DNA of 64,000 nucleotides, taken from Desulfuromonadales bacterium (lineage in GTDB: Bacteria > Desulfobacterota > Desulfuromonadia > Desulfuromonadales > SZUA-540). Made by a program: the position numbers and the translations under genes. The DNA is taken from NCBI GenBank assembly GCA_033549025.1, contig JAWSUS010000001.1:1-64000 (forward strand). Direction: 5' to 3'. Each line of letters starts with the position of its first letter. The first letter of the stretch is position 1. Positions 2,955 through 23,275 of the stretch are shown here, piece by piece. The notes below the pieces were generated by a model. That model had not been told where the DNA came from, ran no database searches, and worked only from the letters and a program-made list of their open reading frames with translations.

Positions 2955-3623
2955 TCACATTTTCCTTCCAGCCCAGACAACCTTTCCTACAATATTCAGC
3001 TGGCCCAGGTCCTTGGGGCCGACGAACAGGTCTGAATAGTCTTTATTGTCGCTTTTAACGATAATGCCGCCGTCTATGTTGCGCTGTAGGCGTTTGGCTA
3101 TCAGGGTTGAATTCATCATTAAGATATAGATCGCGCCGTCCTGGACGTGCAGCTGGTTCAGATCGACCAGGAGCAGGTTTCCCTCCTGGATGGTCGGCCG
3201 CATCGAATCGCCTATGGCGTTGATCAGCGCGAGCCTGTCCGCCTGAAGACCCATCTCCCTAACCCATTTTCGTTTAAAGGCCAGGTGGTCAACGACCTGC
3301 TCGCTTTCGATGATGGCCCCTCCCCCGGCGCTGGCGCTGACGTTGTAGTGCGGCACCAGGAGGAAATCTCCGTTTAGGCATCCATCCGCATGAAGGCAGG
3401 TGCTTTCGGCCTCGGCCCGCAGCATGGGGCCTTCGCCGGTCAGCAGCCACTGGGGACTGTATTCGGGGCAAACCTCCAGGACCTTGATTAAATAGTCTGC
3501 ATTTGGAGACCTGGAGTCAGATTCATAGTTCACAAGCGCGGTTTTGCTGATGCCGGTATCGGGGGCGAACTTGTCACGCGATACACCGCCTCTCACCTTT
3601 TTCAACCTCTCGCCTAAAGTCAC
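2955..3623 (-). CDS. Phage repressor (XRE HTH + S24 peptidase domain)
   Basis: TLGERLKKVR...ISKTALVNYE HTH; GDSMRPTI and AKRL S24 catalytic motifs; GTG start with GGAGGG RBS. Confidence 0.92.
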   Translation of the reverse strand: MTLGERLKKVRGGVSRDKFAPDTGISKTALVNYESDSRSPNADYLIKVLEVCPEYSPQWLLTGEGPMLRAEAESTCLHADGCLNGDFLLVPHYNVSASAGGGAIIESEQVVDHLAFKRKWVREMGLQADRLALINAIGDSMRPTIQEGNLLLVDLNQLHVQDGAIYILMMNSTLIAKRLQRNIDGGIIVKSDNKDYSDLFVGPKDLGQLNIVGKVVWAGRKM

Positions 3624-3637
3624 TCTTCCCTCCGAAA

Positions 3638-3867
3638 CACAAATGTGATTCTGGTTGTCAAAAGCACGTTCGTGAACCGACAACCATGGACGTCTCTCTT
3701 TTCGCTGGTTTCCGGTTTTGTAAGTGCCTAATAAAAAACATAAAAACGGGAGCAAGCGGGCGGAAGGTTGTCAGTTGCGGATCAGGCTTAAGTGACAACC
3801 TTCAAGACCCTTTAAATGGAAAAGGAAAAATAAATCACAAATGTGCTTGACATGATGCACATACGTG
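3638..3867. promoter_or_regulatory. Immunity region: four CAC-N4-GTG operators and a GAAGGTTGTCA/TGACAACCTTC inverted repeat
   Basis: CACAAATGTG (3638, 3836), CACGTTCGTG (3665), CACATACGTG (3858); 11-bp inverted repeat at 3763-3773/3793-3803. Confidence 0.7.
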
Positions 3868-4738: not shown

Positions 4739-6913
4739 ATGAAAGTCAAAACATCTGACATCGTAGCCGCGCTTTGCGTTAGCAAGCAGGCGGTTAATAA
4801 ACGTGCCGCTAAACAGGGCTGGCAACCCCTGCCCGAGCGCGTAAAAGGCGGCGGTAAGGTCTATCTGCTGGCCGAGTTGCCGCTGACGGACGAAGAGCGC
4901 GCCAGCGTGCGCAACTACCTGCAGAACAAGAAGCTGATCCAGCTGATGGACGAGACCGAAAAACACGCCGCCGAGCAGGTTGAAACCGCCGCCGAGACCG
5001 CCCTGGTCTGCCAGGAAGAAGCCGAGGTGCCCGCCGTAATCGCGGTGCCCGATTTGGGCTCGCTTAAAAACTGGCAGCAACGGGTGATGGATGCCCGCCT
5101 GGCCTTTATGCGACTTATCGAGCGGGCCCCAGAAGGGGGCGTCACGCTGGCGATCGACACCCTGGTTAAAAAGTCACGGACCGAAGAGCTCCCCCCATTC
5201 TACCAGGCTTTGGTGCCCATGGCGAACGCCCGGGCCGGAAAAGAGGGCAAGCGGGCCCTGTCGAAGCGCACCTTGATGCGCTGGTGGAGCGACTACAAAA
5301 AGAGCGGCGGCAAGTGGGCCTCGCTGGCCCCGAAAAAGGTTGAAAAAGACGATATCCCCGCCTGGGCTCCGGCTTTTCTCAAGCTGTACCGGGTGCCGCA
5401 AAAGCCCAGCATTAACCATGCGCTGGAAGATCTGGCGGCCATGCTGCCCGAAGGGGCCACACTGCCCAGCGAAAGCCAGGTGCGGCGCTTTTTAAAGAAG
5501 TACAGCCGCCTCGAAGTGCAGCGCGGCCGCAAGAGCGGCAGCGAGCTGCGCAGCCAGCGCATCTACCGCGAGCGCGACACCGACGGCCTAAGCCCGGCCG
5601 ACGTCTATATGTGCGACGGCCACAGCTTTAAGGCTGACGTGGCGCACCCCGGCCATGGCCGCCCCTTCAAGCCCGAAGTCTGCACCGTGATAGACGCCGT
5701 CACCCGCGTGGCCGTCGGCTGGAGCGCCGGTCTGGCCGAGAGCTCGCTGACTGTAGCCGACGCCCTGCGCCACGCCTGCACGGTGAACGAAGAGAAGCCC
5801 TACGGCGGCATCCCCGCCATCTTTTATACCGATAACGGCGGCGGCAACACCGCCAAAATCAACGCTGACGAGGTCGCCGGGCTTTTCCCCCGCCTGGGCG
5901 TCACCTTCGAGACAGGCATCGCGGGCAACCCCCAGGGGCGCGGCATGATCGAGCGGCTGAACTCGTCCCTGTGGATCCCGGCCGCCAAGAAACTCGCCAC
6001 CTATACCGGCAAGGACATGGACAGCCTGGTAAAGCGCAATGTCTACCTGACCCTCGACAAAGAGGTGAAGGCCGCCGACCGCGAACAGCGCGACGTCCAG
6101 CACGAACTGCTGATCTCCTGGCCTGAATTTTTACTGTTCATGGCCGACGAAGTCGACCGCTACAACCGCCGGCCGCATTCGTCGCTACCGCGCATCACCT
6201 GTCCGCAGACCGGCCGGCGCCGCCACATGGCCCCGCTGGAATACTGGGCCGAGTTCGTGGGGCACGGCTGGAAACCCATGATGCTCGACGAGCACGAAAT
6301 CGTCTCGCTCTTTCGCCCGCACGAAATCGTCAAGTGCAACCGGGGCATGATTCGCCTGTGGAAACAGGTCTATTCAGACCCTGTTCTGGAGCACTACCAC
6401 GGCATGGAGTTGATGGCCGGGTACGACGTCCACGACGCCAGCAAGATCTGGGTGCGCGACCTCGAAGGACACCTGCTGGTCATCGCCAAGCGAGACGCCC
6501 ACAAGTCGAAGATTTTCCCCATGAGCAAGATCGAGCTGGCCGCCGAGCAGCGGTACAAGAACCGCATGAAAAATCTGCGCGCCAAAGAGGAAGAGACCGA
6601 ACTGGAATATCGCAGCCGGACCATAGAGACCCGGCCGATACAGGATGTCATCGAGATTGAAGCGGAGGTGGTCGAGAAGAGCGAGAAGATCATCGCCCGC
6701 GCCGCCAAGAAAAAGAAGCTCTTCAGCTCGGTGTGGGAGCGTTACGAAGACCTGTGCAGCCGCATGTCCCAGGGCGACGCCACCGTTACCGACTACGAAA
6801 AGCAGTGGCGCCAGGACTACGAGCACTACACCGAAACCGGCAAGCGCAAAGGGCTGTTTAAAGAGGATGAATTCTGCCTTAAAGAGCAGCTTGAACAGGC
6901 GGAAAGCAAATAA
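4739..6913 (+). CDS. Mu-like DDE transposase (MuA)
   Basis: N-terminal Mu HTH; CDGH, YTDNG and IER catalytic motifs; YNRRPHSSL; Mu transposase C-terminal region. Confidence 0.95.
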   Translation: MKVKTSDIVAALCVSKQAVNKRAAKQGWQPLPERVKGGGKVYLLAELPLTDEERASVRNYLQNKKLIQLMDETEKHAAEQVETAAETALVCQEEAEVPAVIAVPDLGSLKNWQQRVMDARLAFMRLIERAPEGGVTLAIDTLVKKSRTEELPPFYQALVPMANARAGKEGKRALSKRTLMRWWSDYKKSGGKWASLAPKKVEKDDIPAWAPAFLKLYRVPQKPSINHALEDLAAMLPEGATLPSESQVRRFLKKYSRLEVQRGRKSGSELRSQRIYRERDTDGLSPADVYMCDGHSFKADVAHPGHGRPFKPEVCTVIDAVTRVAVGWSAGLAESSLTVADALRHACTVNEEKPYGGIPAIFYTDNGGGNTAKINADEVAGLFPRLGVTFETGIAGNPQGRGMIERLNSSLWIPAAKKLATYTGKDMDSLVKRNVYLTLDKEVKAADREQRDVQHELLISWPEFLLFMADEVDRYNRRPHSSLPRITCPQTGRRRHMAPLEYWAEFVGHGWKPMMLDEHEIVSLFRPHEIVKCNRGMIRLWKQVYSDPVLEHYHGMELMAGYDVHDASKIWVRDLEGHLLVIAKRDAHKSKIFPMSKIELAAEQRYKNRMKNLRAKEEETELEYRSRTIETRPIQDVIEIEAEVVEKSEKIIARAAKKKKLFSSVWERYEDLCSRMSQGDATVTDYEKQWRQDYEHYTETGKRKGLFKEDEFCLKEQLEQAESK

Positions 6914-6981
6914 AAAAGCCGCGCTGCAACGCGGCTTAGGCGGCCATTTCGGCCAAAACACACCCCAAGGAGGATAACAAA

Positions 6982-7734
6982 ATGACGTACCAGATGGCAA
7001 TGACGAAAAACCTGCGCCGCTTTCTCAACGCGGTGGGTGAACTGATGGACCGCCCCGAGGGCACCGAAGGCATGGGGCTTTTATGGGGAGAGCCCGGCGA
7101 AGGCAAGAGCACGGCGGTAGCTTACGTGGTGTCGGTGATGGATGGCGTGTTCGTCCGCGCCGTCGGCTGCTGGACCGTGACCAGCATGCTGGGCGAACTC
7201 TGCAAAGAGCTGGGCGGCCACCGCATGCTGCGCCGCAGCGACATGATCGACTACATCACGCAGAAGCTGGCCGACAACCCCCGCCCCATCTTTATTGACG
7301 AGGCCGATTACCTCTTTCGCCAGTTCGAAATGATGGACGCCCTGCGCGACATTTACGATGTGTCGGGCTGCCCCGTCATCCTGATCGGCATGGAAGATAT
7401 CGCCCGCAAACTGCAAGCCCACGGCCGCTTTGCCCGCCGCATTACCCAGTGGGTCGAGTTTAAAGGGGTCGACCTGGACGACGCCCGCGTGCTGGGCGAA
7501 ACCGTGTGCAAGGTCAAGGTCGAAAAAGACCTGCTGGCCTACCTGCACCAGGCCAGCCGCGCCAACGTGGGCCGCATGGTTATCGGCTTCTCCAAGATCG
7601 AACGCATGGCCAAGGCCAGCGGGCTGACATCGGTCAGCCTGGAGCAATGGGGAGAGCGTGAACTGTTCTACGACCAGCCCGTTTTCGCGTCGCGGAGGGG
7701 CGCAAACGGCAATGGGAACGGGGGGAAATCTTAA
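6982..7734 (+). CDS. Transposition AAA+ ATPase (MuB-like)
   Basis: Walker A GEPGEGKS, Walker B IFIDEAD; follows the transposase. Confidence 0.92.
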   Translation: MTYQMAMTKNLRRFLNAVGELMDRPEGTEGMGLLWGEPGEGKSTAVAYVVSVMDGVFVRAVGCWTVTSMLGELCKELGGHRMLRRSDMIDYITQKLADNPRPIFIDEADYLFRQFEMMDALRDIYDVSGCPVILIGMEDIARKLQAHGRFARRITQWVEFKGVDLDDARVLGETVCKVKVEKDLLAYLHQASRANVGRMVIGFSKIERMAKASGLTSVSLEQWGERELFYDQPVFASRRGANGNGNGGKS

Positions 7735-11874: not shown

Positions 11875-12295
11875 GTTGATTCATACCTGCAAAGGCGCCC
11901 TGCACCTGTCCGACGAAGACTACCGCGCCATTCTGGCCGGGTACGGGGTACAAAGCAGCAAAGACCTGAGCACCTTCAAGGCCGCCAAACTGCTGGCCGA
12001 CCTTGAAGAAAAAGCCGCCGCCGCCGGAGTCTGGAAGCGCCGGGGCGGTAAGGGGCACCGGCCGCACAACATGGCCACCGGCCGCAGCAGCCGCGCCGCC
12101 CAGCTGGAGAAAATCGGGGCCTTGCTCACCGTGGGCGGCAAAAGCTGGGCCTATGCCGACGGCATGGCCAAGCGGATCTGCAAGGTCGAAAAGGTGGCTT
12201 GGGTGGCTGATGACGAGCTGTATAAAGTGATTGCCGCGCTGAGGTACCAAGCCAAGCGCGAGGGCTGGGACTTGAGTGGGGAGGGCGCCAGATGA
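11852..12295 (+). CDS. gemA: GemA / DUF1018 family protein
   Basis: IKLIHTCKGALHLSDEDYRAIL...SSKDL, typical of Mu gp16. Confidence 0.85.
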   Translation: MATAKQIKLIHTCKGALHLSDEDYRAILAGYGVQSSKDLSTFKAAKLLADLEEKAAAAGVWKRRGGKGHRPHNMATGRSSRAAQLEKIGALLTVGGKSWAYADGMAKRICKVEKVAWVADDELYKVIAALRYQAKREGWDLSGEGAR

Positions 12296-12423: not shown

Positions 12424-12440
12424 CGAAATGAACGAGACGC

Positions 12441-12469
12441 TTGACACAAAAACCGCTTCGGGCTACGCT
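12441..12469 (+). promoter_or_regulatory. Sigma70 promoter of the c4-antirepressor unit
   Basis: TTGACA-17bp-TACGCT. Confidence 0.7.
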
Positions 12470-12582
12470 TGCCCTGCTGTCGGCAAAATCCGGCAGTCGG
12501 GTTTAGCGGCCCGCGTTACAGGCGGACACACCGCCTCTGCTTTTCGGCGGTCTTTTTGTGTCCACGGCATGGCGCTCCAGTT

Positions 12583-12655
12583 GGGCGCGTCGTGTGGGGA
12601 GCCTTCGGGCTCGCCGGTTTCCTGTAGCCGGTCCGCTAACCCGCACGGCGCGCCC
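12583..12655 (+). ncRNA. c4-type antisense RNA
   Basis: Closing stem GGGCGCGTCGTGTGGG/CCCGCACGGCGCGCCC, GAGCC-TTCG-GGCTC hairpin; segments TCCTGTA and CCGCTAA are complementary to targets at 12501-12522 and 12663-12704. Confidence 0.85.
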
Positions 12656-12712
12656 TCTTTTCGTTTAGCGGCGAGAAGGGGGGATTATCAACCCCTTATA
12701 CAGGAGAATGCC

Positions 12713-12916
12713 ATGCACCCACCCGACACCCACCCCCTGGACGTACTCGCCGAGTGCGTCTGCAAGTCGGCCTTTTTGGCCGATGCCGTCAATTCCCTTT
12801 CGGTTCGCCGCGATGAACTCAGCGACCAAGGCCTCGAAGGCCTGGGCTTCTTTCTGAGCGAAATCGAACGCGACATCCGCCTGCTAAAAACCATTCTTGA
12901 AGAAAAGGAGGCGTAA
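12713..12916 (+). CDS. Small protein in the icd-like position downstream of c4
   Basis: AGGAG RBS overlapped by c4 target TACAGGA; 67 aa. Confidence 0.65.
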   Translation: MHPPDTHPLDVLAECVCKSAFLADAVNSLSVRRDELSDQGLEGLGFFLSEIERDIRLLKTILEEKEA

Positions 12917-12918
12917 TC

Positions 12919-13503
12919 ATGCTTGCTCAAGTAATCCCCTTCCCCCAAGACGCCGTGGCCCTCAAGGACGGCCGCCCAGTCACAACCAGCCTGAAAGTCG
13001 CCGAAGCGTTCGGCAAGCAGCATGACAATGTACTCCGGACAATCCGCACGCTGGATTGCTCGGACGAGTTTCGCCGCCTCAATTTTGAGGCGGCGACCTA
13101 CACCGATGCGCAGGGCAAGCCTCGGCCTATGTTCGAATTGACCCGTGACGGCTTCACCCTTCTCGGGATGGGGTTCACCGGCCCCCAAGCTGCGCGGTTC
13201 AAAGAGGCATACATCGGGGCCTTCAATGCGATGGAGTCGGCCCTGTTGAGCAAGCACTTCGCGCCAGCTTCTGCCCCAAAAATCGAGGTTGACGCTGTCG
13301 AGCACTACAAAATGAAGGCCGAGCTTGCCGAGTTGAAGCTGGAAAAGGCCGAAGCCGCGAAGAAACGCCGCCGCGCCTTCACCGAGGCCGACAAGACCGT
13401 CATGCTGGCCATGAATGCCCGAGGCAAAACCCCCGGCCAGATCGCCGCCGAACTGGGCCGCACGACCTCTGCCGTGCGCACCTGGTTGCGCACCCGCAGT
13501 TAA
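12919..13503 (+). CDS. Rha-family phage regulator/antirepressor with C-terminal HTH
   Basis: TTSLKVAEAFGKQHDNVLR, LTRDGFTLLGMGFTG, FKEAYIGAFNAME. Confidence 0.9.
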   Translation: MLAQVIPFPQDAVALKDGRPVTTSLKVAEAFGKQHDNVLRTIRTLDCSDEFRRLNFEAATYTDAQGKPRPMFELTRDGFTLLGMGFTGPQAARFKEAYIGAFNAMESALLSKHFAPASAPKIEVDAVEHYKMKAELAELKLEKAEAAKKRRRAFTEADKTVMLAMNARGKTPGQIAAELGRTTSAVRTWLRTRS

Positions 13504-18728: not shown

Positions 18729-20279
18729 ATGGCACCCCTCTACGATGCATACGGCCGCCCGGTAATCCCCCGGGAGTTGACCCGCGAAAAGGCCGCACCG
18801 GCACTGACCGGGGTGCGCACCTTTTGGGACGATACGGTCGCCAGCGGCCTGACTCCCCCGCGTCTTGCAGCTTTGCTGCAGGCGGCGGCCATGGGGGATC
18901 ACTATGAGTTCCTCACTCTGGCCGAAGAGATGGAAGAGCGGGATCTGCACTATGCTTCCGAACTCTCCAAGCGCAAGCTGGCCGTCAGCCGCCTGCCGAT
19001 TGCCGTGGAGGCCTATAGCGACAGCCCCCAGGATGTGCGATTGGCCGATGAGGTACGCGCCCTGGTGCGACGCCCTGGTTTCCGCAATCTGATTAAGGAT
19101 CTGCTCGATGCGCTGGGCAAGGGGTATTCCGTCGTGGAGATTCTCTGGGATCGCACTGGCCCCAGGTGGATTCCTCAAAAGTACAAGTATCGCGACCCCA
19201 GGTTTTTCCAGTTCGACCAGGTCTCCCGCTCCGAGATCCGCCTGCGGGACGAAGCCGATCTGGCCAACGGGGTGGCGCTTTCGCCCTTTGGCTTCATCGC
19301 GCATGTGCCTCGCATCAAGACAGGCATCCCCATTCGCGGAGGTCTGGCCCGCCTGGCTGCCTGGGCTTACATGTGCAAGGGGTACACGGTCAAGGACTGG
19401 TTGGCGTTCGCTGAGGTGTTTGGGCTGCCGATCCGGCTGGGCAAGTACAATGCCAGCGCCAGCGTCGACGATATCGCGGTGCTCAAGAGCGCGGTGGCCA
19501 ACATCGGCAGTGACGCGGCGGCGGTAATTCCCGAGTCGATGCAGCTGGAGCTCAAAGAGGTCGCGGCCAAAGGCGGCAGCGCCGAGTTCTTCAAGACGCT
19601 GGCCCAGTACATGGACGACCAGGTCAGCAAAGGGATCTTGGGCCAGACGGCGTCCAGCTCGGGAACTCCCGGCAGGCTGGGCAACGACGATCTGCAAGCC
19701 GAGGTGCGGGACGACATCCGCGACGATGATGCTGAGCAGCTCGAAGAAACTCTGGGCCGCGACCTGGTCAAGCCATTTATCGACCTGAACTTCGGCCCGC
19801 AAGAGAACTATCCGGCCCTGCAATTGAGGGCCCCCAAGGCAGAAGACGTGGTCGCCCTGGTGACTGCTCTGGAAAAATTGGTGCCGCTGGGCCTCAAGGT
19901 CGAGCAGAGCGTGGTGCGCGACCGACTGAACATCCCCGACCCCGACCCGAAGGCCAAGCCGGAGGACCTGCTGGCCGCTCAACCTGCCCCGGCCCCGCCG
20001 GCGGTAAACCGGGCCCTGAACCGAGAGTTGAACCGGGAGCAGGACGCCCCTGACGCGGCTGCCATCATCGCCGATCGCGCTCTGGACCAGGCCGATGGCA
20101 GCGATTTGGCCGCAGCTGTCGAGAGACTGCTGGCCGAGGCGGAAAGCCTGGAGGACGTGCGTGACCGCCTGTTGGCCCTCTACCCGACGTTGGAGATCGG
20201 CCAGGCTGGCGAGGTTCTCGGAGAGGCCTTGCTGGTGGCGGATCTGGCCGGCCGGGCCGCCGTAAAGGATGAAGCATGA
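18729..20279 (+). CDS. Portal protein (Mu gp29/DUF935)
   Basis: LAEEMEERD, LLDALGKGYS, GLPIRLGKY, SKGILGQT. Confidence 0.93.
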   Translation: MAPLYDAYGRPVIPRELTREKAAPALTGVRTFWDDTVASGLTPPRLAALLQAAAMGDHYEFLTLAEEMEERDLHYASELSKRKLAVSRLPIAVEAYSDSPQDVRLADEVRALVRRPGFRNLIKDLLDALGKGYSVVEILWDRTGPRWIPQKYKYRDPRFFQFDQVSRSEIRLRDEADLANGVALSPFGFIAHVPRIKTGIPIRGGLARLAAWAYMCKGYTVKDWLAFAEVFGLPIRLGKYNASASVDDIAVLKSAVANIGSDAAAVIPESMQLELKEVAAKGGSAEFFKTLAQYMDDQVSKGILGQTASSSGTPGRLGNDDLQAEVRDDIRDDDAEQLEETLGRDLVKPFIDLNFGPQENYPALQLRAPKAEDVVALVTALEKLVPLGLKVEQSVVRDRLNIPDPDPKAKPEDLLAAQPAPAPPAVNRALNRELNREQDAPDAAAIIADRALDQADGSDLAAAVERLLAEAESLEDVRDRLLALYPTLEIGQAGEVLGEALLVADLAGRAAVKDEA

Positions 20280-21475
20280 CCGTCACTGCTCTCGATCTGC
20301 CCTTTGCCGAAGCGATTGCCTATTTTCGGCAGAAGGTCAACATCCCGACCGAACGGTGGGATGACCTGCGGACCGGCATGCATACGCGGGGTTTCATGAT
20401 TGCCGGCGCTCAGAGAGACAGCCTGTTGGCCGACTTCCGGACCGCCATCGACAAGGCCATTGCCGAGGGTGGCACCCTGGAGAGTTTTCGGAAAGACTTT
20501 GACCGCATCGTGACCACCCACGGCTGGAGCTACAACGGGTCGCGGGGCTGGCGTAGCCGGGTGATCTATGAGACGAACCTGCGCACCGCCCACCAGGCAG
20601 GACGCTATGCACAGATGACCGACCCGGACGTGCTCAGTTATCGCCCCTATTGGCGCTACCGGCACGGTGACAGCCGGCATCCCCGGCCGCAGCACCTGGC
20701 CTGGGACGGGCTGGTGCTGGCGGCGGACGCCCCCTGGTGGCAAACGCACTATCCACCCAACGACTGGGGCTGCAAGTGTTTCGTCGAAGCGCTCAGCGGC
20801 CGTCAGCTGCGCAAGCTCGGCAAGGACGAACCCGACGACGCTCCGGACAGCCCCATCAACCCGACCACCGGAACGCCGGAAGGAATCGGCAAGGGGTGGG
20901 ACTACAACGTGGGCGAAGCCGCCTGGGGGCGCAATGAAGCGGCCCGGCTCATGGAAGATCAGGGCCCGTGGCAGGACTTGCACCCCTGGGGTCCGGAGAG
21001 GTTTGGCCGTCCTGAAAAGCTGACCCCCGTTCCGGCGGCCGCACGACTGGGCCGCATAGTGCCAAAGGGGGACGAGGCAGCCCTGCGGCAGAGCTTGCGA
21101 GATGCCATCGGCGGCGAAGCGGCCGACATGGCCGACCCGACCGGCACGCCCGTACGGGTGACGCAGGCACTGGTGGACCACATCTTGGCCGAACCCGATG
21201 AGCGATGGGATGGCCGGGAAGCTTATTTCCCTCTGATCCGCGACCTGATCGAAGACCCGCAGGAGATCTGGGTCAATTTCGCGCGCAGCGAATTGTCGGG
21301 GCGCGTGGCCTTGCGCCGCAAGTATGTCAAAGCCGTTCGGCTCTCAAGCAACAAGGTGCTGGGCCTGTATGCCGAAATCGAAAACGGTCACTGGGTCAGC
21401 GGGAATATGTTCAGAGGGGGATTAACCGGCGCCAGCAACCTGCGCAAGGGGCGGCTGGTGTATGGCAAGGATTAA
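20276..21475 (+). CDS. MuF head morphogenesis protein with C-terminal PBECR-like nuclease domain
   Basis: IYETNLRTA, YWRY, RPQH, YPPNDWGCKC MuF motifs; extra C-terminal domain with H...DGREAY...IEDPQEIW...RRKYVK. Confidence 0.88.
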   Translation: MTVTALDLPFAEAIAYFRQKVNIPTERWDDLRTGMHTRGFMIAGAQRDSLLADFRTAIDKAIAEGGTLESFRKDFDRIVTTHGWSYNGSRGWRSRVIYETNLRTAHQAGRYAQMTDPDVLSYRPYWRYRHGDSRHPRPQHLAWDGLVLAADAPWWQTHYPPNDWGCKCFVEALSGRQLRKLGKDEPDDAPDSPINPTTGTPEGIGKGWDYNVGEAAWGRNEAARLMEDQGPWQDLHPWGPERFGRPEKLTPVPAAARLGRIVPKGDEAALRQSLRDAIGGEAADMADPTGTPVRVTQALVDHILAEPDERWDGREAYFPLIRDLIEDPQEIWVNFARSELSGRVALRRKYVKAVRLSSNKVLGLYAEIENGHWVSGNMFRGGLTGASNLRKGRLVYGKD

Positions 21476-21546
21476 GCTCTCACTCCCCGTGCGGAGTGCA
21501 GCGCCCGGCAACCGGTTATCGGGGCACGGCCCAACCGACGCCTGCA
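21476..21546 (-). ncRNA. Candidate structured small RNA convergent with muF
   Basis: Downstream of minus-strand TTGACT-17-TAAATT; ends TGCAG/CTGCA pair, inner CGGTT/AACCG and GGGC/GCCC stems, 3' CACTCC/GGAGTG hairpin. Confidence 0.5.
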
Positions 21547-21551
21547 ATATC

Positions 21552-21580
21552 AATTTAACGGGAGCCCAGGGAGAAGTCAA
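21552..21580 (-). promoter_or_regulatory. Antisense sigma70 promoter
   Basis: TTGACT (21580-21575), 17 bp, TAAATT (21557-21552). Confidence 0.6.
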
Positions 21581-22141
21581 ATGGCCGGAGCGGGTCTGGA
21601 CTTTAACACCAGCATAGACGACCGGGACCTCCGGGAGATGTTGCGCCGCCTGGCGCGCGCGGCCAGGGACATGTCCCCGGCCATGAAGAACATCGGCGAA
21701 CACCTGGTGCAGGCCACCGAAGAGCGCTTCCGAACGGAAACCGGACCGGACGGGCAGAAATGGGCCGATGTTTCGGAGAAAAGAAAGGCGCGCAAGAAGC
21801 ACCCTAAGATCCTGACCGAAAGCCTGCGGCTGCGCCAGTCGATCCACCCAGAGGCCAGCAAGGACAAAGTCGTGGTTGGGACCGATGTCCCCTACGCCGC
21901 CGCCCATCAGTTCGGGTTTTCCGGTCAGGTGCAGGTGCCGCAGCACAACCGGCGGATCACCAAGGTTTTTGGCAAGAAGTTGAAATTCCCGGTCTGGGGC
22001 ACGGTCAACCCGTTCTCGTTCCAGCAGGAGATCCCGGCCCGGCCCTTCCTGGGCATCGATGAGGACGACCAGGAAGAGATTCGAGGCATTATCGAAGATC
22101 ATATCGCCTTCGCCCTTAAAAAAGCTCCTGAGAGCGATTAG
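21581..22141 (+). CDS. Virion morphogenesis protein (Mu gpG-like)
   Basis: RFRTETGPDGQKW, VGTDVPYAAAHQFG, IPARPFLG. Confidence 0.9.
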   Translation: MAGAGLDFNTSIDDRDLREMLRRLARAARDMSPAMKNIGEHLVQATEERFRTETGPDGQKWADVSEKRKARKKHPKILTESLRLRQSIHPEASKDKVVVGTDVPYAAAHQFGFSGQVQVPQHNRRITKVFGKKLKFPVWGTVNPFSFQQEIPARPFLGIDEDDQEEIRGIIEDHIAFALKKAPESD

Positions 22142-22225
22142 GACACCCGAACCCATACAAAGGGTGCCGCATTGAAAGAACGTCGAATACAGAGAGTTTT
22201 AAAAAGGGTTTAAACACGGTTCTGA

Positions 22226-23275
22226 ATGAGGTCATCGATGGGAAAAGCAAGATTCGTCGTAATAACGACAAAAGCAGAGGAGTTGAAGGCCCTTAACGGT
22301 GTCTCCCTCCCCGAGGGATGTGGCGTCGTGGCTCTGAACTTCGAGATGCCGACGGACGGCAGCGTGCCGGAGCACATCGAACTGATTCCGGCCGGTGAAG
22401 TCGTCCAGGGCCGTGACGGCCGCACCTTTCTGAACGACAGTCCGGCCGGGCTGTCGGAGGCGTTCGCCCAGGACGGCAAGGATATCCCCGTCGACTGGGA
22501 GCATGCCACCGAGCTGCGCGCCCCCAATGGCCTGCCCGCGCCGGCGGCCGGCTGGATCAAGGAGATCGTCACCCGTGAAGACGGGTCGGTCTGGGGCCGC
22601 GTCGACTGGACCGAGAAGGGGCGGGCATCGGTGGCGGGCCGCGAATACCGCTATGTCTCCCCCGTGTTCATATTCGAAAAGGAGAGCCGCCGCATCCTGC
22701 GGATAACATCTGTGGGCCTGACCAATCAGCCCAACCTGCGGCTCAAAGGACTCAACCATCAACAGAAGGAGGAAGAGATGCTTCCAAAGGAACTGCTGGC
22801 CAAACTCGGCCTGCCCGAGAACGCCACCCTGGAGCAGGCGATGAACGCCATTGCCAAAATCCAGGGCGACCTGACCACCGCCCTCAACCGGGCGGAGAGC
22901 CCCAGCCTGGACAAGTTCATCCCGCGCGCCGACTACGATGCCGCCATGAACCGCGCCACCACCGCCGAGCAGAAGCTGGTCGCCCGCGACCAGGCCGACC
23001 TCGACAAAGAGATCAACGCCGAAGTCGACGCCGCCGTCAAAGCAGGCAAGATCACTCCGGCCACCGTCGAGTTCTACAAGGCCAGCTGCCGGGCAGAAGG
23101 CGGCATGGAGGCCTTCCGGAAATTCGTGGAGGCGGCGCCGGTGTTGGGAGCGCCTTCGGATCTGGACGGCAAGGCGCCCGAAAAGGGCGACCGCGCCCTG
23201 AACGCCCAGGAGCAGCTCATTGCCGAAATGTTCGGCAACAGCGCCGAGGATCTCAAAAAGTTCGGCCAGGCATAA
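22226..23275 (+). CDS. Prohead protease (Mu gpI-like) with in-frame scaffold start at 22778
   Basis: GRDGR, VDWEH, PAAGW, EYRYVSPVF, LTNQPNL; internal AGGAGG RBS + ATG 22778; exact 5' start uncertain. Confidence 0.9.
   Translation: MRSSMGKARFVVITTKAEELKALNGVSLPEGCGVVALNFEMPTDGSVPEHIELIPAGEVVQGRDGRTFLNDSPAGLSEAFAQDGKDIPVDWEHATELRAPNGLPAPAAGWIKEIVTREDGSVWGRVDWTEKGRASVAGREYRYVSPVFIFEKESRRILRITSVGLTNQPNLRLKGLNHQQKEEEMLPKELLAKLGLPENATLEQAMNAIAKIQGDLTTALNRAESPSLDKFIPRADYDAAMNRATTAEQKLVARDQADLDKEINAEVDAAVKAGKITPATVEFYKASCRAEGGMEAFRKFVEAAPVLGAPSDLDGKAPEKGDRALNAQEQLIAEMFGNSAEDLKKFGQA

Follow-up and report, generated by a model that had tools for sequence, protein, structure and literature searches.

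The 64,000-nucleotide (nt) stretch analysed here, positions 1 to 64,000 of contig JAWSUS010000001.1 (assembly GCA_033549025.1) from a Desulfuromonadales bacterium and referred to below as the window, contains an apparently whole Mu-like prophage. Its muF gene encodes a minor head protein that ends in a PBECR2 domain, a predicted ribonuclease (RNase) of the BECR fold, and directly behind the muF stop codon, on the opposite strand, lies a gene for a small non-coding RNA (Table 1). Judged from the comparison of related sequences, this RNA gene is real: its promoter and its pairings are strongly conserved among relatives, and it is tied to intact PBECR2 domains at more than 100 distinct loci in several phyla. 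As its function we propose, with slightly better than even confidence, that the RNA may be an immunity factor that binds and inhibits the virion-delivered RNase and takes the place of an immunity protein.

The gap of 105 nt between muF and the following gene, gpG, is non-coding. The initial annotation of this DNA had noted a C-terminal extension on MuF, gpG as the next gene and the lack of an immunity open reading frame (ORF), and these points were confirmed: the extension corresponds to PBECR2 at amino acids (aa) 273-396, no immunity-sized ORF lies between muF and gpG in the gap, and no ORF, sense or antisense, is conserved in the gap region among relatives. It had also placed a promoter, TTGACT-17-TAAATT, on the minus strand, with its start at the first base of a fold. 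This site (21580-21552) is the sole promoter-like site in the interval 19500-23000, where 0.4 are expected, and six bases lie between its -10 box and the first paired base at 21545, in agreement with the proposed start. For the comparison, searches with the C-terminal domain yielded 217 matched loci with 163 distinct downstream sequences, and promoters were counted in the 150 gaps with a full domain match and enough flanking sequence, at a weighted sigma-70 score of at least 12. The antisense promoter expected in homologs is present on the minus strand of 99 of these 150 gaps, whereas the controls gave 5 for the plus strand, 4 for the interior of muF, 8 of 146 for stretches farther downstream and 6.2 for shuffled sequences. 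Among the 135 gaps scoring at least 10.5, the -10 box is located 70-94 nt from the muF stop in 115, and a good promoter accompanies 86 of 97 matches of the covariance model described below, with the -10 box 6-10 nt ahead of the first paired base in 81 of the 86. An RNA run, containing 4% of words and three contigs from relatives, none of them over the gap, says nothing either way.

Taken by itself, the window sequence folds no better than chance, with z-scores of -0.5 to -1.0 and 28-56 of 200 shuffled sequences folding equally well; single-sequence folding of 21476-21546 on the minus strand gives a z-score of -0.53. Rfam returned two chance matches only in the gap region (E 2 and 4.9) and none at gathering score in 20 + 20 loci. 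Because of the unremarkable fold and the empty Rfam result, the window by itself could not carry the claim. A seed alignment of 45 gaps, aligned by sequence only and hand-picked from 95 non-redundant candidates, is biased, since its rows were picked by eye for likeness; in it, 28 of the 29 proposed pairs change on both sides, and 85.6% of the cells are paired, compared to 35-45% for slid partners. All 15 pairs of the long arm vary, 14 of them on both sides, with 85-96% of cells paired, and the 3' hairpin, the worst-aligned helix, reaches 70% and 77% in two alignments.

The covariance model was built without the pairs between the two loops. It matches the window at 21471-21549 with 82 bits (the window being part of the seed) and most loci in the expected place on the minus strand. 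Among 102 distinct top matches, 57 are outside the seed, and 34 of these 57 have six Watson-Crick loop-loop pairs, whereas 2000 partner swaps, made as a control, averaged 2.5 and never exceeded 9. In a further alignment, with 64 matches from 62 non-seed loci, the loop-loop helix is 96.3% paired, and six of six pairs are compensatory; a few of its rows are identical or nearly identical to seed rows (L241/L103, L233/L092, L003/L004/L001), and its nested helices were fitted to the model. A strict loop-pair descriptor matched 99 of 162 loci against 10-15 in controls; a looser descriptor was dropped, as it matched 74 of 202 control stretches. The homologs thus bear out the conserved fold that the initial annotation had called for, with 28 of 29 pairs changing on both sides and a perfect kissing helix in 34 of 57 held-out copies. 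The fold it had drawn could be kept in part: CGGTT/AACCG remains, as does the hairpin that CACTC/GAGTG forms at the muF stop, whereas the TGCAG/CTGCA outer stem gives way to a conserved pairing of 5' GC-A-GG with CC-GG-GC (21508-21503), CTGCA belonging to the 3' hairpin, and the inner GGGC-CGT-GCCC stem is actually GGG-(CCGUGC)-CCC with a 6-nt loop. The loop-loop pairing CCGUGC/GCACGG was absent from that drawing.

Two variants of the RNA were seen. L031, L044, L093, L094, L101, L121, L226 and L299 have, about 120-135 nt behind the muF stop, a longer form with one or two extra 5' hairpins before the core fold. The RNAs of a K-type subfamily, in whose domain Lys replaces His302 (L245, L247, L248, L250, L254, L255, L303, L319, L322, L338-L343, L274 and L276), have by eye the same two-hairpin layout with paired loops and were missed by the model, R1; in L254 and L255 the loop-loop helix apparently contains a bulge. 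Weak model matches in coding regions, at window 12050-12129 on the minus strand (E 1.9) and in L231 (G000:C7:114085-114181, E 0.68), are probably due to chance. The topologies of a transfer RNA (tRNA) mimic and of HDV-like, pistol and twister ribozymes were rejected because their pairing order does not fit and Rfam gave no match.

Among 151 genomes of the phylum, 5 gave a model match. Two of the four further copies adjoin PBECR2 genes, and the remaining two lie behind a muF-end stub of about 75 nt, near toxin-antitoxin-like genes. A pattern scan of viral contigs produced 9 matches, 5 on contigs of known loci and 4 copies of one new locus that adjoins a MuF-PBECR2 gene. In 401 genomes, Pfam gave 12 further strong PBECR2 genes, some too divergent for the C-terminal-domain searches; 10 have a promoter scoring at least 12, the other two have a model match, and most of the 12 loci show paired loops with new sequence, judged by eye. 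Close relatives, where they have titles, are mostly Deltaproteobacteria / Thermodesulfobacteriota, and the cultured phages carrying the RNA are Thermus phage Riverbug, Meiothermus phage MMP7 and Leptolyngbya phage Lsp-JY19. L260, L264, L267 and L268 encode small stand-alone weak-PBECR2 proteins with a short protein gene directly behind; an RNA is missing, and the loci resemble the usual protein toxin-antitoxin pairs.

A search with the MuF N-terminus gave 74 loci. Beside short MuFs, none of 11 distinct loci has a model match, and the next gene is at most 25 nt away in 10. In phage Mu, gp30 overlaps G, leaving no gap and no RNA, and the MuF tail is called inactive by Iyer et al. (PMC5512222, section 19). 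A profile search was dominated by the MuF N-terminus and is excluded from the counts. In 30 complete loci, the similarity of the RNA follows that of the C-terminal domain with a partial rho of 0.52 (0/2000 permutations), compared to 0.31 for the N-terminus (2/2000) and 0.11 for the equally adjacent gpG (359/2000), correlations that are inflated by adjacency and shared descent. Between L015 and L144, tail and RNA have been swapped together (N-terminus 92%, gpG 83%, tail 34%, RNA 53%). The RNA also persists in loci where gpG is not the next gene, and gpG, which RNA similarity does not follow, is probably a neighbour outside the RNA/nuclease system.

The RNA is lost together with the active site. 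A domain was called degenerate upon loss of His/Lys, Arg314 or R-x-G, and the RNA was called present with a model match or a promoter of at least 11.5 at 60-140 nt; 199 domains were scored, 15 were unanchored, and L064, L103, L129 and L207 were excluded as truncated or frameshifted. The RNA accompanies 155 intact domains and is missing from 23, as opposed to 5 degenerate domains with and 16 without it (Fisher p 2.6e-9, a significance exaggerated by the relatedness of the domains). The five degenerate domains with RNA look, on rereading, like miscalls: in L079, gpG follows 7 nt behind the stop, L133 is a frame artefact, and for L257, L274 and L276 the motif rule is too strict. About 18 of the 23 intact calls without RNA have two hairpins with pairing loops by eye, L007 has its own RNA copy 3 kb away, and the case of L122 is unclear. 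Beside five unanchored degenerate domains (L259, L350, L352, L354, L355), no two-hairpin RNA was seen. In a quick tree of 160 domains, read by eye, the 21 degenerate RNA-less rows occupy 6-7 places among RNA-bearing kin, several of them on long branches. The clearest loss is that of the nine-member L314 group, where Val has replaced Lys, Ala has replaced Thr and the RNA has disappeared; it stands beside L322, which keeps both, with a support of 99; L163 contains an apparent decayed RNA relic.

Copies away from muF were also found. In L007, L033, L035, L038, L040, L047, L110 and L086 the RNA lies 0.1-3 kb from muF behind inserted DNA; in the first seven of these, unrelated genes stand between muF and the RNA, and the insert of L035 is what we take to be a RelA/SpoT-like reading frame in two pieces. 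These insertions suggest a hot spot for lysogen-expressed cargo. An intact RNA has outlasted the gene in L103, where muF is frameshifted, and in L242 and L243. The last two come from two genomes of one genus, and at 1501-1579 they hold the orphan RNA with about 75 nt of the muF 3' end; judged from translations, the neighbours are HicB/HicA-like genes, plus a RelE-like gene in L243, and in L242 a single pair of the loop-loop helix is mismatched. Tandem or extra copies of a different subtype are present in L024 (3029-3209), L197 (3029-3263), L213 (2810-3150) and L145 (2988-4102); in L024 and L197 the second copy stands behind a short run of codons resembling a former C-terminus of muF. Orphan RNA copies persist after the loss of muF, as orphan immunity genes do.

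In the MuF protein, Pfam matches at E of at most 0.1 are limited to Phage_Mu_F (aa 53-170) and PBECR2 (PF18810), the latter with 70.6 bits against a curated cut-off of 27.1; no HEPN, Abi or ToxN-type toxin family was found in muF by Pfam. According to Iyer et al. 2017 (PMC5512222), PBECR2 is a predicted virion-injected RNase whose N-terminal helix carries a His. The window domain keeps His302, Arg314, Arg390 and Gly392, which are conserved in 158, 154, 163 and 163 of 163 relatives, respectively. Its AlphaFold2 model has a predicted local distance difference test score (pLDDT) of 92, with His302 in model helix 78-85. The best structural neighbours are CdiA/colicin RNase domains, with weak scores (Z 3-4.3, 74-90 residues aligned, root-mean-square deviation (rmsd) 3.3-4.2): 7m5f (Z 4.3, rmsd 3.3, 81 aligned), 6cp9 (Z 3.9), 3ao9 (Z 3.5) and 1tfk (Z 3.2). 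A sequence search of the PDB gave a single match (E 1.5), and an ESM Atlas search gave PBECR2, PBECR3, MuF_C and unnamed clusters and nothing else. Many relatives (P0078, P0086, P0099, P0105, P0111 and others) have about 900-970 aa, with an N-terminus about 500 residues longer, which fits portal-MuF-PBECR2 fusions; P0052 has all three Pfam families.

Because the RNA occurs with intact domains, is lost with decayed ones, outlives the domain, has its own promoter and occupies the slot of the immunity ORF, the pattern is that of an antidote. In the mechanism we propose, the small RNA would be transcribed from its own housekeeping-type promoter, and since this promoter is separate, the RNA is probably made in the lysogen, independently of the late head operon. 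It would fold into two arms locked by the 6-bp loop-loop helix, recognise the PBECR2 domain by shape and block it as an inhibitor or as an uncleavable or decoy substrate. The MuF tail would be an RNase that is packaged in the phage head and then injected, and the RNA, standing in for the immunity protein of other MuF toxins, would protect the lysogen against leaky or late-made MuF as well as against MuF injected by related phages.

Several points weigh against this reading. Transcription, RNase activity, toxicity, direct binding and protection are steps that we infer, as we do packaging, from MuF biology. The RNase assignment is a prediction based on Pfam and on Iyer et al. (PMC5512222). These authors give Thr as part of the PBECR2 active site, and the window domain has Asn377 at this position of the last core strand (Thr in 122, Asp in 25 and Asn in 8 of 163 relatives) and Ser375 two residues earlier. 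No structural neighbour of the domain reached a Z of 5, the best being 4.3, and the Foldseek search that the initial annotation had recommended returned no PDB match at E of at most 0.001. L116 has an intact domain and no model match anywhere in its genome, and L028 and L113 lack the RNA yet keep His and Arg, with the last strand altered. The K-type subfamily keeps its two-hairpin RNA with paired loops without His302, so that the rule for calling a domain intact is a heuristic. As RNA and domain adjoin, linkage alone explains part of their correlation. Of 101 RNA copies, only 5 have a U-rich terminator tail, defined as at least five U within 8 nt behind the copy. Finally, joint loss is predicted equally by a cofactor or guide and by antisense silencing. 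The initial suggestion that the RNA is an antitoxin, a decoy or a guide is supported in part: the tie of the RNA to an intact nuclease domain fits an antitoxin or decoy, and the comparison cannot separate antitoxin, cofactor/guide and antisense action.

Antisense silencing similar to type I toxin-antitoxin (TA) systems, in which a transcript running into the muF 3' end silences leaky muF messenger RNA and the fold serves as a stabiliser, is in our view unlikely. The promoter is convergent with muF, and the few U-rich tails mean that the transcript may run on antisense into muF. In the window the fold ends at the muF stop codon, and of 88 adjacent copies 82 have its end within 0-16 nt of that codon; silencing, too, would lead one to expect that the RNA is lost when the active site decays. 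However, a stabiliser needs neither a tertiary loop-loop helix nor a near-constant size (model span 75-84 nt), and copies persist up to 3 kb off behind inserted genes or as tandem and orphan copies. In L256, L132 and L138, a U-tailed hairpin separates the RNA from muF, and silencing would be powerless against an injected protein.

That the RNA is a cofactor or guide, loaded on MuF and perhaps packaged, which activates the nuclease or aims it at host RNA (tRNA, CRISPR or defence RNA), we regard as quite unlikely. The nearly one-to-one occurrence with intact domains, the joint loss and the co-inheritance with the domain type would all be explained, and the RNA antitoxin of AbiF has been described as a forerunner of Cas13 guides (PMC12737573). 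On the other hand, the RNA is without a variable single-stranded, guide-like segment, its variable bases being paired inside the RNA, and no match of more than 12 nt to it was found elsewhere in the window. The separate sigma-70 promoter on the opposite strand points to expression apart from the late genes, and orphan copies without the enzyme would be useless. Colicin-like BECR RNases, moreover, function without an RNA partner.

It is very unlikely that the conserved structure acts on the plus strand, be it as a cis element of the late messenger RNA (processing site, attenuator or translation signal) or as an assembly structure, with an incidental antisense promoter. Complementary stems can form on either strand, the element sits in the head module, and its paired loops could link RNA copies into rings, as the paired loops of phi29 pRNA do. 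Against this, G-U pairs exceed A-C pairs on the minus strand (61 vs 11 in the long arm and 9 vs 2 in the kissing helix of the sequence-only alignment), the promoter start coincides with the first paired base, the RNA is kept where gpG is not next, and it is missing from the short-MuF phages that build the same kind of head. Hardly credible is a 5' leader of a small antisense gene overlapping muF and encoding the true immunity protein: one antisense frame is open for at least 50 codons in 64% of 88 loci, but the same frame is open at 78% of control positions located farther upstream within muF, in 0/88 loci does the RNA precede an ATG that has a ribosome-binding site, and the distance from RNA to stop varies over all three frames, so that this antisense immunity ORF was rejected.

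The preferred reading, an RNA in the role of an immunity protein, can be placed between two known classes. Among MuF polymorphic toxins, an immunity ORF lies directly behind the gene in 89% of 191 cases (Jamet et al. 2017, PMC5576092). The window locus resembles them in the head protein with a swappable C-terminal effector in a temperate-phage head module, the cognate element right behind the stop codon and the joint exchange of tail and element; it differs in that a convergent RNA gene replaces their co-directional small ORF (PMC5576092), and no immunity ORF was found there. The accessible text of this study leaves the C-terminal extensions of Proteobacteria phages as unknown and does not contain the word "promoter". 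The PBECR2/MuF-PBECR proteins described by Iyer et al. (PMC5512222) belong to the same Pfam family as the window domain, and section 19 names no immunity factor or adjacent RNA for them, whereas an RNA gene adjoins the domain here. Colicin D/E5 and CdiA-CT tRNases (1tfk, 3ao9, 6cp9, 7m5f), the top though weak fold neighbours, have solved inhibitors that are proteins and are delivered by secretion, in contrast to the RNA partner and the virion delivery proposed here.

On the side of RNA antitoxins, AbiF/AbiFr likewise pairs a single cis-encoded structured RNA, without a repeat array, with an RNase (PMC12737573), and a phage-encoded example exists (10.1101/2025.04.15.648962). AbiF, however, is a HEPN protein acting in the producing cell, as opposed to a BECR-type domain on a virion protein, and the RNA described here is on the opposite strand with its own promoter; the window locus gave no HEPN/Abi match in Pfam and no Rfam match in the gap or in 40 loci. 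ToxIN, CptIN and TenpIN share a pseudoknot-type RNA beside a predicted endoribonuclease, but their toxin forms one operon together with a promoter, tandem repeats and a terminator, and their pseudoknots are of the H type (PMC12283969), whereas here a single convergent RNA with a loop-loop helix lies downstream of the gene. Since neither their layout and toxin families nor the immunity ORF were found, the locus is filed under neither classical type III TA nor MuF toxin. Type III TA in the broad sense, with AbiF and AvcID included, covers a structured non-coding RNA beside a predicted toxin, which is what the window contains. In such systems the RNA also neutralises the toxin by direct binding, for which joint loss would here be an indirect sign. 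By analogy, we lean towards the view that the pair would function like a single-RNA type III TA placed at the locus of a MuF polymorphic toxin.

A literature search whose coverage left subscription journals largely outside turned up PBECR2 in one paper and the RNA in none, and "non-coding" does not occur in the accessible text of a 2026 BECR preprint (10.64898/2026.08.28.747851). The unnamed candidate DNAVirus_1035 (Fremin et al. 2023, PMC10690425) has 76 nt and 139 sequences; these come from tailed phages infecting Alpha-, Beta-, Delta- and Zetaproteobacteria, and 33 of them lie no more than 25 bp from Phage_tail_S; two covarying bases and no MuF or nuclease link are given in the accessible material. 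Compared by its table description alone, it may be the window RNA, a sister family or neither. The RNA gene is apparently undescribed so far, though DNAVirus_1035 may be an uninterpreted listing of it.

At least two other types of MuF tail are followed by conserved elements of a different kind, again with a facing promoter-like site. The second element, of about 100-120 nt with the motifs AAACCCCACA, TGCTACGGC and AGAAT..CACCGTGTC, stands directly behind the stop of the upstream gene, which its promoter-like site faces, and follows a different, PBECR3-like tail with weak Pfam support; this tail type is common to 19 of 31 distinct pattern matches among the matches listed, and Rfam has no match for the element. 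It is present in L333, L337, L369, L373, L376, L377, L379, L380, L382-L384 and L387, and further in L389, L392-L394, L397, L398, L401 and L403. The third element (L344, L346, L348, L349, L366, L367) has a length of about 60-70 nt, contains the motif ACGTCCGAAAC, is accompanied by a TTGCA-17-TATA site that faces the gene, and sits behind the stop of MuFs that have a decayed PBECR2 plus a further PBECR3-like domain; in L347, L350, L352 and L355, without the second domain, it is lost. A rather unlikely extension of our proposal is that PBECR2 and its RNA are one branch of an unrecognised class of virion-delivered BECR RNases, each with a convergent RNA partner, and that the RNA, more than an antidote, is the working subunit of a packaged and injected ribonucleoprotein and would keep the nuclease off in immune lysogens and turn it on, or target it, in naive hosts.

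The gene order portal-muF-gpG-protease, with repressor and transposase genes upstream, is that of a temperate-phage head module, and the start of muF is overlapped by the upstream gene. The Pfam scan covered four genes, and the other gene names in the window are readings of translations. At 12428-13503, a 162-aa frame and a protein that we take to be Rha-like stand with a leader similar to the ash/c4 region known from immunity of the P1/P4 type. A Fic-like gene (437-1741) marks the left edge of the prophage, together with, on the minus strand at 2215-2754, a two-transmembrane SLATT-like gene of lower GC content, both named from translations.

Table 1. Coordinates of the RNA gene, the MuF nuclease domain and the surrounding prophage genes in the window
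Feature	Position	Strand	Basis or remark
Small non-coding RNA, structure of about 70 nt	21476..21546	-	Covariance model, covariation, G-U excess
-35 box TTGACT	21575..21580	-	Abuts the gpG start codon; kept in relatives, even without gpG next
-10 box TAAATT, 17-nt spacer	21552..21557	-	Predicted start about 21546-21545
Long arm: 2-bp basal stem, A/GG internal loop, 10-bp stem, 3-nt bulge, 3-bp GGG/CCC cap	21503..21545	-	
Loop A (CCGUGC), 5' kissing partner	21524..21529	-	6/6 pairs compensatory; 96.7% and 96.3% of cells paired
3' hairpin: 3 bp, small internal loop, 5 bp, 8-nt loop	21476..21502	-	Ends at the muF stop codon
Loop B core (GCACGG), 3' kissing partner	21487..21492	-	
PBECR2 domain, predicted BECR-fold RNase	21092..21463	+	Pfam aa 273-396, E 1.7e-19
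muF (399 aa), minor head protein ending in PBECR2	20276..21475	+	ORF, Pfam, PHROG 220 (minor head/DNA pilot)
gpG, tail completion / Neck1 protein	21581..22141	+	Pfam Phage_tail_S, PHROG 26
Repressor	near 2955-3755		Prophage; name from reading translations
Transposase A and B	4739-7734		Prophage; names from reading translations
Head and tail genes	up to about 37860		Prophage; names from reading translations

To our knowledge, immunity to polymorphic toxins and colicin-like RNases has so far been provided by proteins. Immunity by RNA would unite polymorphic toxins with type III toxin-antitoxins, classes kept apart until now, would add the BECR fold to the RNA-inhibited toxins, and would account for the many long MuF proteins without an immunity gene. 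If the wider class of RNase and RNA pairs were true, it would mean RNA-encoded kin recognition between phages and a second origin, after AbiF, of RNA-controlled RNases. Because the presence of the RNA marks tails that are probably active, the function and activity of PBECR tails become testable, and the pair is compact, with about 125 aa and 70 nt, and has a loop-loop helix that allows a break-and-restore test.

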